From assembly GCA_951406725.2 (NCBI GenBank), contig OX597825.1:50220001-50284000 (forward strand): a stretch of DNA of 64,000 nt, written 5' to 3'. The stretch's first letter is position 1, and each line of letters opens with the position of its first letter. Shown here piece after piece: positions 6,641 through 59,915 of the stretch. The notes under the pieces are model-generated. The model saw nothing but the letters and a program-made list of their open reading frames with translations, searched no databases and was not told the origin of the DNA. A program made the translations under genes and the position numbers. Source of the DNA: Octopus vulgaris. Lineage: Eukaryota.

Positions 6641-7220
6641 TAATTATAATTATAATTAAGGGTTAATTGCAACAAAGTTGCTCAAAACCACATACCGAAA
6701 ATATTAGAAATAGCAACCAAAATTGATCACTATTTCCTTAAATAATAAAAAGTCTCCACAAACAAACAGAATTTGTAAGCTGTATATGGCAAAAAAGGGA
6801 GAAAACAACGAAATCCCAGCCTATGGATTAATTATAGACGAATCGTTTCTGGATTAGAACCGATGGTTCATTTCCTTGTCAATATACTGACAAGGAAATG
6901 AACCTTCGGTTCTAATCCAGAAACGATTCGTCTATAAAATTAATCCATAGGCTGGGATTTCGTTGTTTTCTCCCTTTTTGCCATATACAGCTTACAAATT
7001 CTGTTTGTTTGTGGAGACTTTTATTATTTAAGGAAATAGTGATCAATTTTGGCTGCTATTTCTAATATTTTCGGTATGTGGTTTTGAGCAACTTGTTGCA
7101 ATTAACCCTTAATTATAATTATTATAACCCTTACCAAATATGGTCTTTTCCATACCGATAAATCTACTAGGTGAAATTGATTAATTTTATTAAATTAATT
7201 ATATTCCACCCTTTATTGCA
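6641..7220. mobile_element. Fold-back palindromic element with ~240-bp arms (6641-7126, apex ~6884) and a ~95-bp unpaired extension, flanked by (TA)n
   Basis: The arms are near-perfect reverse complements (TTTCCTTGTCA-atatac-TGACAAGGAAA at the apex). (TA)n lies at 6588-6641 and 7220-7253. Confidence 0.9.
6883..6936 (+). ncRNA. Type I hammerhead-like motif with variant core CUGACAA; a mirror copy lies on the minus strand
   Basis: tata-CTGACAA-[gga..gaacc ttc ggttc..tcc]a-GAAA-cg att cg-TC-tata. Confidence 0.55.
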
Positions 7221-8002
7221 TATATATATATATATATATATATATATATATATAGGGAGGTGTATGTTTGTTCCCCACCACCGCTTTACACCTGCTGTTG
7301 GTTTGTTTACGTACCCGTAACTTAGCGGTTCGGCAAAAGAGGCGGATAGATAAGTACGAAGCTTCAAAAAATATGTAGTGGGGTAGATTCGTTCGACTGA
7401 AAACTCTTCAGGCCGGTGCCCCAGCATGGGTATGAAGGCGTTCCAGCCAGCCGTAACAGTGATTGATATTTAGATATCAATCACTTCATTGTTCAACGTA
7501 TCCTCCTTTATTAAGACAGCATGGAACGATTTAAAGAATACTAGGTACCTATTTCTAGCTGGTCAACGACGGCCTAGCTACTCTGATATTGACTGTTTCT
7601 AAGATGGAACTGCATTCTCTTGACAATTGGTATCAACATATTTCAATTGCACTTCTCAGTCCCTCAGTTTTGAGCTAATGGTGGATGTCGTTCACGAACC
7701 ATCCACCCTTGAACAACGCCGACATATTAACTAAAACCACATTTTCTATATATCATGCAATAGCTCATTCAAAATGTTATTTAGATAATCTCTCATACAC
7801 TAACTTTCTCTTTCTCTCACACACATAGACACATGTCTTCATTTTCCTTTTTCTTTCTCTTTCCCTCTCTCTCTCTCGCTCTTTTTCTCTCTGTTATACA
7901 TGTACTGTCACTCCATTTCTCTCACTCTTACATATATTATCTTACCGCTTCTCTCTCTAAGAAATATGTTATTCTTTTGACCGATTAATTTGTTTTTCTA
8001 TT

Positions 8003-8495
8003 ACAGCAGCAGCAGTAGCAGTAGTAGTAGTAGCAGTAGTAGTAGTAGTAGTAGTAGTAGTAGTAGTAGTAGTAGTAGTAGTAGTAGTAGTAGTAGTAGT
8101 AGTTGTTGTTGTTGTTGTTGTTTTTGTAGTAGTAGTAGTAGTAGCGGCAGCAACAATGATAGTAAGAAAAGGATATTGGTGATGACAACGATGAGGAGAA
8201 GGAGGAGGAGAAGGAAGTGGAGGGGAAGAAGAAGAAGAAGAAGAAGACGACGACAACAACACCGACATTAAATGTTCGTATTGTCTGTTATGGCAAATGT
8301 TATTTTATGTATGTGTGAGCATTTATGTATGCATGGTGTGTTTTTGTGTCTGTGTGTGTCTGTGTATGTGAATATGTATGAGTATGTGTGTGTATGTGTG
8401 TGTATGTGTGTGTGTGTGTGTGTGTGTGTGTGTGTGTGTGTGTGTGTGTGTGTGTGTGTGTGTGTGTGTGTGTGTGTGTGTGTGTGTGTGTGTGT
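8003..8495. repeat. (AGT)n/(GTT)n/(AAG)n and (GT)n microsatellites
   Basis: Directly visible. Confidence 0.95.
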
Positions 8496-9399
8496 TGTAT
8501 TTTACGAAACAACAACATCAGAAAGCACTTTGGAAAACATGCAAACACATCTCATTATACAATTATACAATTTCTTCTCATAAATTCTTAGTTCAAGACA
8601 AATGGATGAAATGCCGTCATTTTCTTCTTCCATACGTCAATCAATAACCACTTCAACTATTTCCAAGACGATCTTTTCGTGATTTCACTTCCTTCGATAT
8701 TTTTTCAGTTTTAGAATTCCACGACAAAAAACATTTTTCTTTCCTAAAATATACTGTTGCTGCTGTTGTTGTTGTTGTTGTTGTTGTTGTTGTTGTTGTT
8801 AGCCCTAAGTCTACGTTAATTTATTAATGCTACGATCAAAGACAATCCAGCTGTAATCATCCATCCCAAATTCTTTATTTTTCTGATAAAATATTTATTA
8901 GACTACATTACTTCTACTTCCCATCCACTTTAAAAAACATTGCTGTGTCGTTTAGTTGTTATTGCTACGAAGACGAACGTCTATGTAGAGGCTCCTCGCC
9001 AACAGAAGATTATATGTGTATGTGAGCGTGTAATATAATAAAACGTTAAAATCTGTTAGGACATTCATAAGTATAGTGCAGGGCTGAAGAAGGGTTGGGG
9101 ACAGAATCGCCTTCGAGAATAGAATAACACATCTGCGAAATACTGTTCATGATAACCTTTACGCCTAAGTAACCCACGACTACTGTTCATTAAATTTAGC
9201 AGGTAATGTCTCACTTGACCGCTACTTTTGTTCACCTCATTGGTATTTTTCAGAGTCCCAAATACATACACACACTTAAGTATATACTCACAAATATATG
9301 CGTGTGTGTGTATGTATATATATATATATATATATATATATACACACAATATATATTTCATAGTTATATACATAATTATAACAAGGGTCGACTTTATGC

Positions 9400-57511: not shown

Positions 57512-58864
57512 TCTCTTATGATAAAGGGCAGATTTTCTCTGTCTCCCAAATTGTTCGTTTTTTATACAATTGTACAATACAGAATTTCTTCAATAGGAAT
57601 TTACCTATGATTTTTCGAAGTAGATTCCATTGGGTCATGGCATGTAAAGTTTTTTCAATTTTACCCCCAATTAAGCAAAAATTCGAGAAAACTTATTATG
57701 TGTGTGTGTGTATTTGCAATTCGTATAAAATTGCATCAATGACTTGAACTTGAATAAGTGGTTTCACATAAATGGGGATAAATTAAAAAGGTTTGTTGTT
57801 ATTATTATTACTGTTTGACTATTGTAATCACGTTTGTTGGTTCCTCGTCAGGGAAACGTTGTTGTGTTGCATTTGTTAAATAATTGAATTGTGTCCCAGT
57901 TTGGGGAAATTGACAATATTTTCACCGTCTTTACGGAAGCATTTTTGTTAAAATGCCTTCCATAGAAGAAAGTCCAAAAATGAATTTTGCTGCAGCCATA
58001 CACTTCTATACAAGAGGGAGGACAAGATCCAATTGATCGAAATTGCAAAAGATGGGCCTATAATTCCAGTCTGTTATATATTTTGAGTATTGTTATCACT
58101 AGCAATATCAAGATATAACTTTGTATTTTGTATTTTATATTTTATGTGTAGATGTATATATATAGATGTACATGTAATATGTACACATATATATATATAT
58201 ACACATATATACATGCATAATATATCTACCCATACACGCATACGCACACACACACACACATACATAGGGGCAGGTGTGGCTGTGTGGTAATAAACTACGT
58301 TCCAAACACATGGTCCTGGGTTCAGTCCCACTGTGTGGTGACTTGGCATGTGTCTTCTGCTGTAGCTTCAGACCAACAAAAGCCTTCTCAGTGGATTTTG
58401 TACATATATACAGGCATACTTACATATATATACATGCATGTTCTATATTTTATAAATTACCCATATTTACTTACCCATGCTTCATTCCCCTCTTGCCTAC
58501 ATAGGGCATCCATTCTCTTTTAACACAGCATGAAGTTTTGTAACAGCACATCCGCTGCCGTTCGTGGAAAACGAAGAGACCCTATTCACCTACGAACGTT
58601 TTACACCACCTTCCATGACTATCAAATTCTTACAATTATGAGAACAATAACATTGCTCTTTTCAAGGCAACCTCGCATTCAATTCTTACACCATTCTACA
58701 AGGGGGTAGGAACCCCTTTACACGGCTTTCTATACACATACAAATACATTCATCCGCCGTAAACTAATATCAATATTTGCCTGAATAATCATCATAATTC
58801 AGTGCAATCATTAACAGTACTTTCAAGCAATTCAGCCCCAAGCATCGCCGAGCAATTCTGCTAG
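57512..58864 (+). mobile_element. Non-autonomous Helitron interrupted by a microsatellite and a SINE A head (58268-58400)
   Basis: 5' TC..TAAAGGGCAGATTTT, 3' GCCCCAAGCATCGCCGAGC..CTAG, inserted between A and T. Confidence 0.55.
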
Positions 58865-59068
58865 TATATATATATTTGTATGTATGTATTTATGTGTGTG
58901 TGTGTGTGTGTGTGTGTGTGTGTGTTACTATACGTATATATATATCTATATATGTAAAAGAGGGGACGACTGAAATACTTCAAGGAGATGTCAAAAATGA
59001 AAGGCCGCCAGTACAGTCCAAGTAAAGAATATATATAAAAATTATATATTCAGTATTTGCAAAGGCAT

Positions 59069-59460
59069 AGGAGTGGCTGTGTGGTAAGTAGCTTGCTTAC
59101 CAACCACATGGTTCCAAGTTCAGTCTCACTGCATGGCACCTTGGGCAAGTGTCTTCTACTATAGCCTTGGGTTGACCAAAGCCTTGTGAATGGATTTGGT
59201 AGACGGAAACTGAAAGAAGCCTGTCATATATATATATATATGGGTTTGTGTGTGTGTGCATGTGATTGTGTGTATGTGCTTGTATGTCTGAGTTTGTCCC
59301 CCCATAACTTGTTGGTTCGGCAAAAGAGACCGATAGAATAAGTACTAGGCTTAAAAAGAATAAGTCCAGGGGTCGATTTGCTCGACTAAAGGTGGTACTC
59401 CAGCATGGCCACAGTCAAATGACTGAAACAAGTAAAAGAATAAAAGAGAGTAAAAGAGAA
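59069..59460 (+). mobile_element. SINE family A, full length
   Basis: Head GGAGTGGCTGTGTGGTAAG through the GTAAAAGA tail. Confidence 0.9.
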
Positions 59461-59915
59461 GTATGAAAGTAGGAAAAATTGTAGGTGTAGACGAACTTTG
59501 ATTCATAATCCAAGTTGGTACAGAGCCAATATTCATTCTAAATATTGTTTTGGAGTCTAATTAATTCCAATGACAAAAACGAAAAACTCTTCATAAAATA
59601 AAAAAAAAAATGGATTCTTCGTCAAGAATTACATACTGATATGAATAATTACGACAAAAAAATATACAAAGACCTTCAATAGCCCAGACAGGCTATGAAA
59701 GATCTTTGTATTTTTTTTTTTGGTCGTAATTATTCATACCATTATATAATTCATGATGAAGAATCCAATATCTATTTCATGAACACTTTTTTGTTTTGTC
59801 ATCAGAATTAATTAGACTCCGAAACAATATTTAGAATGGATATTGGTTCTGTACCAACCTGGATTATGAATTAAAGTTCATCTAACCTGCAATATTTCCT
59901 TTCTTTTTTACTTCA
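59458..59915. mobile_element. Fold-back palindromic element (~225-bp arms, apex ~59686) with a decayed hammerhead in each arm
   Basis: Apex ATAGCC-cagaca-GGCTAT; the arms are reverse complements. ATTC-ATGATGA..GAAAC..GAAT at 59749-59837. Confidence 0.85.

Follow-up and report, generated by a model that had tools for sequence, protein, structure and literature searches.

The stretch analysed here, referred to as the window, comprises 64,000 nucleotides of the Octopus vulgaris genome (contig OX597825.1, positions 50,220,001 to 50,284,000) and consists of animal DNA rich in AT and microsatellites. It contains four fold-backs, E1 to E4, which an initial annotation had described as palindromes sharing one architecture, with a hammerhead ribozyme motif at or near the apex. 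The same annotation had taken them for a recurrent, retrozyme-like hairpin class mobilised by Penelope-like elements (PLEs). We measured the arms of the four fold-backs by alignment. Inverted arms are present at all four sites and differ in sequence as had been claimed, since blastn finds no match between the arms of one element and those of another. A self-blast of the window returns E1, E3 and E4 as its top three fold-backs, while E2 is weak. None of the four contains an open reading frame (ORF), in agreement with the annotation: the longest stop-free stretch on the hammerhead strand (for E4, on the plus strand) is 49 codons.

The two arms of E1 (6643-6881 and 6888-7125) are identical at 233 of 241 positions (96.7%) and enclose a loop of 6 nt; four of their eight differences are indels in homopolymer runs. 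The forward unit (6883-7219, plus strand), a member of a high-copy family, starts with a hammerhead and continues for ~290 nt to a (TA)n tract. Its inverted copy, i.e. the left arm (6643-6881, minus strand), has no tail and ends at (TA)n. The forward unit thus carries a one-sided extension of ~95 nt (7126-7219, plus strand), which forms an AU-rich terminal hairpin closed at CACCC and is self-inverted at 7170-7210. A minimal type I hammerhead is found on the minus strand (6837-6882), with the core UUGACAA (covariant at U3-A8), a palindromic stem III, a GUC cleavage site and a 4-bp stem I. The second hammerhead copy (6887-6932, plus strand) has the core CUGACAA, in which C3 faces A8 as a single mismatch. 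At the junction, both copies begin at TATA, the 5' strand of stem I. Transcription from either side would yield the antisense arm first, and the transcript is predicted to fold into a ~240-bp duplex (-394 kcal/mol). The annotated self-cleaving double-stranded RNA is therefore doubtful for E1, because both of its hammerheads would be buried in this duplex, and is plausible for E2 alone, where the motif lies in the spacer.

E1 is present in 20 of the 24 sequencing runs listed, under four organism labels and from nine studies. We aligned four of these runs, with three organism labels, to positions 6850-7219, which cover the forward half and 33 nt of the inverted arm. This copy test used assembled contigs of the E1 family with a reporting floor of 2% and 32 of 2327 pieces listed. 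The forward half is high-copy, with 793, 796, 587 and 133 contigs in runs X3, X2, X4 and X8, respectively. In the two largest runs, the summed depth amounts to ~10,000-44,000 over the hammerhead and, close to the 3' parts, to as much as ~430,000 in a bin; although summed depth is no copy number, it exceeds by orders of magnitude that of single listed contigs (mostly 7-90). At 8-20 nt beyond the apex (6863-6875), the depth relative to that over the hammerhead (6902-6914) is 0.001, 0.013, 0 and 0 in the four runs. By our own estimate, a ratio of ~0.4 would be expected if all copies were folded at the E1 apex, because contigs built with k=31 run ~15 nt beyond the centre of a palindrome. Moreover, E1 carries private bases in both of its arms, at places where most of the family depth differs (94-100% at 7027, 78-98% at 7029 and 7030, 53-100% at 6972). 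Private bases common to both arms indicate that the arms stem from one template and, taken together with the rarity of the apex in the family, show that E1 is a single fold-back event with few descendants and not a propagating hairpin. For the E1 family, the proposed recurrent hairpin with one apex thus does not hold, and some related hammerhead units have no inverted arm.

The family has further properties. Its best-conserved part is the hammerhead: among the 40 of 48 rows listed, variant places are found once in the 49 nt of the hammerhead versus 36 times in the 277 nt downstream (Fisher p=0.026), and the sole listed one within the hammerhead falls where the centre of its palindromic stem III is unpaired. 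A loose end of run X4 shows that other copies, too, have (TA)n behind position 7216. In run X8, one contig contains an opposite-strand joint from 6949 to 7021. A>G places number nine in X8, which we guess to be RNA, and three to eight elsewhere; these counts are uninformative on editing. A block of ~35 nt (7047-7082) occurs in many sister subfamilies, where it shows the highest depth and is flanked to either side by divergent loose ends; a 17-nt part of it is found again at 39968-39984. This block is a candidate for a protein-recognition site. Scans for exact E1 motifs in metagenome, viral and genome contig collections found none, as expected for animal DNA.

E2 differs in its proportions. Its arms (48745-48800 and 48954-49008) match at 48 of 57 positions around a spacer of 153 nt; the annotated palindrome hence stands as a pair of ~56-bp arms, but is mostly spacer. 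The forward unit (48801-48998, plus strand) begins ~8 nt before the core and has 91 nt to (TA)n, and the short inverted copy (48745-48800, minus strand) repeats the last ~55 nt of the unit. The hammerhead of E2 (48809-48902, plus strand) is intact, with the core CUGAUGA, a long stem II, a palindromic stem III, a GUA site and a 5-bp stem I. In E3, the arms (57044-57209 and 57263-57429) are identical at 153 of 167 positions and separated by 53 nt. The spacer holds a degenerate hammerhead (57262-57210, minus strand) with two core mismatches, whose stem I is formed by the innermost arm pairs; the inverted copy (57263-57429, plus strand) therefore begins at the predicted cleavage site. The forward unit of E3 (57044-57267, minus strand) is prolonged by a one-sided extension of ~100 nt (56945-57047, minus strand) with a terminal hairpin and CACCC.

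E4 (59458-59684 and 59691-59914, strand unassigned) has arms identical at 191 of 231 positions (82.7%) and a 6-nt loop. At its apex, a 6-bp hairpin precedes GAAA and a palindromic hexamer, and no hammerhead core is present. This apex possibly represents stem II and the 3' half of a hammerhead; by eye it resembles the base of the E2 stem II, although the alignment gives p=0.28. A hammerhead facing inward within the arms of E4 was ruled out for want of a stem I. The left arm adjoins a repeat resembling a short interspersed nuclear element (SINE). Judging from the four elements together, the common architecture claimed earlier does not extend to the ribozyme, since the core is intact in E1 and E2 only, degenerate in E3 and absent from E4.

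Two further fold-backs were found. The first (52072-52266, plus strand, with the unit reaching 52395) has arms matching at 75 of 97 positions (77%), an extension on one side to (TA)n and, at 52203-52214, what may be the 3' half of a hammerhead. The second (42691-42899, strand unassigned) has arms matching at 72 of 89 positions (81%) and gave no match with the relaxed hammerhead descriptor. Both regions (52072-52395 and 42691-42960) lie beside (TG)n and extend on one side toward (TA)n or (CA)n. Another fold-back, at 14653-14911, was excluded as an inverted pair of repeats that we take to be SINE-like. Furthermore, we identified a solo hammerhead unit (38785-39160, plus strand) with an intact core at 38790, a stem II of ~90 nt, a broken stem I and 263 nt to (TA)n, which has no inverted arm (self fold-back test p=0.31).

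To place these motifs against chance, we compared a strict minimal-hammerhead descriptor with 30 local shuffles. It recovered four sites in the window (E1 minus with its U3-A8 core, E2, 33890 and 35978) versus 0.00 in the shuffles. Allowing one core mismatch gave five sites versus 0.40 and added E1 plus, while two mismatches gave nine sites versus a shuffle mean of 2.4 (maximum 7) and added E3. With a relaxed stem I, five sites combining the core and the 3' half were obtained versus 1.3 (maximum 4), and 38790 was gained. Hammerhead 3' halves alone were not above chance (24 sites versus a mean of 13.2, maximum 26). Of the intact-core hammerheads in the window, two of five thus lie in fold-backs and three of five are without an inverted arm. 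E1 minus and E2 show all features described for metazoan PLE minimal hammerhead ribozymes (min-HHRs), i.e. the CUGANGA core or its U3-A8 variant, GAAA, a UH site, a 4-5-bp stem I and the palindromic 15.2-16.2 pairing. The Rfam covariance scan suggested by the annotation did not recover them: the hammerhead models (RF00163 and others) gave no match at E<=10 for E1, E2 or 35978, and over the window there was no hammerhead among the 150 of 280 matches listed. The matches obtained were microRNA-like and came from hairpins and microsatellites.

In both E1 and E3, the extension is at the 3' end of the strand that carries the hammerhead, while E2 and E4 have no tail. The similar termini annotated for E1 and E3 hold up, as alignment of the last 60 nt of the tails gives p=0.004, for a window selected post hoc; the whole tails give p=0.12. 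Both tails end in AU-rich hairpins (z of -3.5 for E1 and -2.3 for E3), and among the 39 non-repetitive segments that abut (TA)6 or longer runs, these two alone have CACCC within their final 25 nt. The 30 nt around the cleavage sites of E1 and E3 are also similar (post hoc p=0.0005). Alignment of the whole units yields p=0.03 for E1 versus E3 and p=0.09 for E1 versus the solo unit. Judging from sequence similarity, a distant relationship is probable between E1 and E3. The same probably applies to E2, E3 and the solo unit, the latter being similar to E2 (p=0.002) and E3 (p=0.004). The 52-kb element resembles the hammerhead region of E3 (post hoc p=0.007). In an all-against-all test, E4 versus the 52-kb element stood alone at p=0.02, uncorrected, and was not counted. 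Perfect (TA/TG/CA)5+ runs lie within 20 nt of five of the eight ends of E1 to E4, against a background of 8.3%. The TA-rich flanks noted earlier are thus borne out only in part, E4 having no perfect microsatellite flank.

With a probability of about 80%, we consider each palindrome to be a single 5'-truncated insertion of a PLE-type, hammerhead-bearing 3' end (a pseudo-long terminal repeat, pLTR) together with a head-to-head inverted, likewise 5'-truncated copy. A PLE protein with a GIY-YIG endonuclease, most likely of the Hydra clade, would nick a (TA)n tract. Reverse transcription would then start near the RNA's 3' end, at or beside the terminal stem-loop, as is known for PLEs, and the reverse transcriptase (RT) might stall in or just past the structured hammerhead. 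From there, the 3' end of the cDNA would snap back through a short self-complementary stretch of the ribozyme and prime the second strand. Judged by the observed apex positions, this stretch would be the stem I TATA for E1, stem I for E3 and probably stem II for E4, where both copies look by eye as if cut off inside stem II. If the second strand stopped ~95 nt short of the first-strand start, at the inner of two termini, a tail would remain on one arm only. Subsequent decay of the arms would lead to their present divergence of 3-23%. The hairpin itself would be a by-product, while the unfolded unit or a longer parent multiplies.

Several observations weigh against this explanation. The units of E1-E4 have no blastn match to the PLE remnants of the window, and no parent ORF is tied to them. 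Aligned as whole units, E1, E2, E3 and the solo unit also show no significant similarity to the 3' untranslated region (UTR) of a PLE remnant at 10 kb (p=0.13-0.93). The 3' end of this remnant (~9343-9430) is weakly similar to the short end of E1 (p=0.012); the match tops all TA-abutting segments outside E1, yet another tile of the window scores higher, so that the link is weak. Six E1-E3 motifs of 11-13 nt are absent from the Craig et al. supplement, in which line breaks can hide matches. The tails of ~95-100 nt exceed the published 30-40 nt, and the units run 260-290 nt past the cleavage site, compared with a few tens to ~200 nt in Hydra consensi. The examination of other copies covered E1 alone, at its own apex. 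E4 and 42691-42899, which have no demonstrable hammerhead, may have another origin. Lastly, gene conversion from arm to arm could also have placed the private bases in both arms. In structure, E1-E3 fit PLE pLTR insertions, with a putative PLE parent.

The alternative that survives best concerns the parent alone and is compatible with the pLTR insertion described above, as fold-backs would still be occasional by-products. Here, the unfolded unit of ~340 nt, from the hammerhead to the CACCC terminus, would be non-autonomous in itself, as a SINE-like or solo-pLTR family whose 5' end is fixed at the ribozyme and which PLE proteins move in trans. The starts of E1, E2 and E3 all lie within ~8 nt of the core, and the unit combines a high summed depth under three organism labels with a conserved hammerhead and no ORF. 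Moreover, sister subfamilies have 7047-7082 in common, and non-autonomous PLE derivatives have been published (Chlamys MRC1, PMC8557442; also described in a retrozyme preprint). However, upstream letters of another kind occur in several contigs (21 nt in X3 record 9; 7 nt in X4 record 17, which has a depth of 394; and two loose ends of X8), suggesting that copies have sequence in common 5' of the hammerhead. Ahead of the solo unit at 38785 lies DNA that looks unrelated, and a depth rising toward the 3' end would also be given by 5' truncation of a long parent. We therefore regard this family as a realistic but tentative proposal.

Somewhat less likely, in our view, E4, 42691-42899 and perhaps 52072-52266 are unrelated to the others and represent fold-back DNA elements akin to miniature inverted-repeat transposable elements, or microsatellite palindromes made by repair, with half-motifs arising by chance. 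The absence of a core from E4 and the 42-kb element, the chance level of 3' halves, the poor alignment of the E4 and E2 apices and the lack of perfect TA flanks at E4 all speak for this possibility. The by-eye likeness of the E4 apex hairpin and GAAA to the E2 stem II base argues against it, as do the resemblance of the 52-kb element to E3 and its one-sided extension.

The whole hairpin as the transposing unit, i.e. the retrozyme-like class proposed initially, appears very improbable. Intact hammerheads did seem enriched in fold-backs, which make up 3.7% of the window and held two of the four loci known (p=0.008) before the fifth, non-palindromic one was found. The apex coincides with the hammerhead in E1, E3 and perhaps E4, and contigs of run X2 cross the E1 apex at a summed depth of 226-327, possibly from more than one copy. 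Yet at most ~1% of the family depth crosses this apex. Arm lengths, spacers and apex helices vary between the elements, and a duplex of ~240 bp would bury both ribozymes; tandem monomers are absent. Finally, artefacts of long reads or assembly, to which the homopolymer indels in E1 might point, have a next to negligible chance given the arm divergence of 3-23%, substitutions included, and the X2 contigs that span the E1 apex, though X2 may be the source sample.

The inversion junction falls on a hammerhead helix clearly in two elements and probably in a third. If this coincidence held over thousands of copies, it would show that PLE inverted repeats form by snap-back of cDNA at the ribozyme and would suggest a role of the ribozyme fold beyond cleavage. 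A more far-reaching reading, which we consider rather unlikely, is that octopus genomes harbour a large undescribed family of hammerhead units, ~340 nt long and non-autonomous, which proteins of Hydra-clade PLEs mobilise in trans. Their U3-A8 core would be under purifying selection, their two RT starts would lie ~95 nt apart, their terminal stem-loop would be conserved, and their ribozyme helices would serve as built-in snap-back primers, with hairpins recurring at a programmed position. The octopus lineage shows heavy A-to-I editing of its RNA; such a family, if real, would have seeded many templates for long double-stranded RNA across the genome and would allow a direct genomic test of self-priming as the origin of inverted pLTRs. 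For repeat annotation, the E1 family is of use as it is abundant in several Octopus-labelled runs and absent from the consensi searched.

The window further contains remnants of PLEs. At 30061-31170 (plus strand) lies a broken ORF of the Hydra clade with CxCx5C, CxxC and CxH motifs, its endonuclease motifs falling within 30488-31170; a search for longer proteins with this endonuclease piece gave no match, which is weak evidence. Two further Hydra-type remnants align to it: RT and endonuclease pieces at 40555-41380 (plus strand; endonuclease 35% identical, E 2e-12) and the above-mentioned 10-kb remnant, an endonuclease at 10108-10326 (minus strand; E 4e-10). A broken PLE ORF at 109-1000 is presumably Neptune-like. 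Downstream of the 30-kb remnant, ~2.4 kb of TA/TG/CA-rich repeats are followed by a hammerhead (33890-33928) ~20 nt from (TA)n. This hammerhead may be the 3' end of the remnant, and 30061-33945 (plus strand) may be one element with a 3' UTR swollen by microsatellites.

The adjacent unit (34012-36140, plus strand) lies between TA arrays and has no RT. It contains an uninterrupted frame of 394 codons (34454-35638), which is gag/ORF1-like with a zinc knuckle (PF00098), followed by a clean Hydra-type hammerhead (35978-36010). The frame has two database relatives only, from Octopus sinensis (74%) and O. bimaculoides (37%), which by itself identifies the host as an Octopus species. The terminus of the unit, with CCACCCTT, is like that of E1 (p=0.02). 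Possibly, the unit is an ORF1-only passenger carried by PLE proteins; gag-like ORF1s are present in Chlamys-2/5_cBra (Craig et al. File S1, PMC8557442). The segments 28690-29260 (minus strand) and 34012-34330 (plus strand) have the same ~19-nt terminus after (TA)n and a T-rich block of ~220 nt in common, the latter in opposite orientation relative to this terminus. The 28.7-kb copy contains a GAAA-before-CUGAUGA half-motif, as found in the 3' region of Naiad_Obim (Craig supplement). Dispersed short-period repeat blocks with a mutual identity of 65-70% occupy 17500-25400. A fragment at 13438-14016 (minus strand) with WIFYRN and DEKW-type motifs is one that we take to be a Mariner-like transposase.

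Comparison with known systems places the fold-backs close to PLE insertions. PLE insertion units consist of a pLTR, an adjoining inverted 5'-truncated copy and a one-sided tail of 30-40 nt (Craig et al. 2021, PMC8557442 Fig. 2). A curation guide (PMC8969392) counts inverted pLTRs and 3' extensions among the usual features of PLEs. According to Arkhipova et al. 2013 (PMC3846280), head-to-head inverted pLTRs with palindromic junctions are read as self-priming on an antisense template, and pLTRs drive mobilisation in trans. Likewise, the hammerhead strand of E1-E3 reads away from the junction with the inverted copy upstream, the junction is palindromic, the copies are 5'-truncated, and in E1 and E3 a tail is present on one arm only. 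In contrast to PLE insertion units, only a 3' stub without an ORF is present, the tails measure ~95-100 nt, and the junction lies on hammerhead helices. Frangieh et al. 2024 (PMC11167929) trace the tail to a stem-loop at which the RT has two internal start sites, and describe insertion in vitro without a need for cleavage. Our literature search, with Repbase and subscription journals outside its scope, found no octopus hammerhead fold-backs, hammerhead-primed inversion or junctions at ribozyme helices.

The type I hammerhead of PLE pLTRs is present in E1 and E2, degenerate in E3 and not encountered in E4. Cervera & de la Pena 2014 (PMC4209133) describe metazoan PLE min-HHRs with a U3-A8 core and a palindromic stem III, whose self-cleavage is weak, dimeric or protein-assisted. 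They also report paired motifs in Schistosoma mansoni, placed on opposite strands and 100-700 bp from each other, which they relate to truncated PLEs. Our motifs share the 4-5-bp stem I, the dimer-suited palindromic stem III, the U3-A8 core and the opposite-strand pair. Their stem II, however, is longer (26 nt in E1, 75 nt in E2 and ~90 nt in the solo unit), and unlike the S. mansoni pairs the two E1 motifs stand back to back.

PLEs of the Hydra clade have a CxCx5C linker as well as CxxC and CxH motifs in the endonuclease, and insertion into (TA)n is the rule for nearly all of their families (PMC8557442 section 11). They bear a 3' hammerhead, Hydra-1_Obim prefers (TA)n, and Penelope-13_HM has an attached inverted 5'-truncated copy with a hammerhead on both strands (PMC8557442). 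The (TA)n targets and the hammerhead near the 3' end agree with our elements, and the motifs of E2, 33890 and 35978 look by eye like the Hydra motifs of Craig File S2. In contrast, E1-E3 gave no sequence match to the published consensi in the search with short motifs, and beyond the cleavage site E1, E3 and the solo unit continue for 260-290 nt. The annotated link to PLEs is supported by minimal hammerheads with palindromic stem III and U3-A8, the one-sided tail, the (TA)n targets and the nearby Hydra-clade remnants.

Similar to retrozymes, the units are short, non-coding and PLE-related and bear a type I hammerhead. Non-LTR retrozymes, as described by Cervera & de la Pena (2020, PMC7229834) and Li et al. 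(2026, bioRxiv 10.64898/2026.07.22.740005), consist of head-to-tail tandem monomers, each with a hammerhead, and give rise to linear and circular monomer RNA. Our units instead occur as inverted pairs or solo, with no direct self-repeats in the window, so that two cleavages could not release a monomer. The retrozyme-like label therefore fails because head-to-tail tandem monomers are absent. Taken together, the fold-backs are best classed as truncated pLTR insertions of PLEs to which an inverted copy is joined, a structure already described, to which the octopus sequences possibly add the E1 family, with its long tail, conserved U3-A8 motif and perhaps non-autonomous nature, and junctions that coincide with ribozyme helices.

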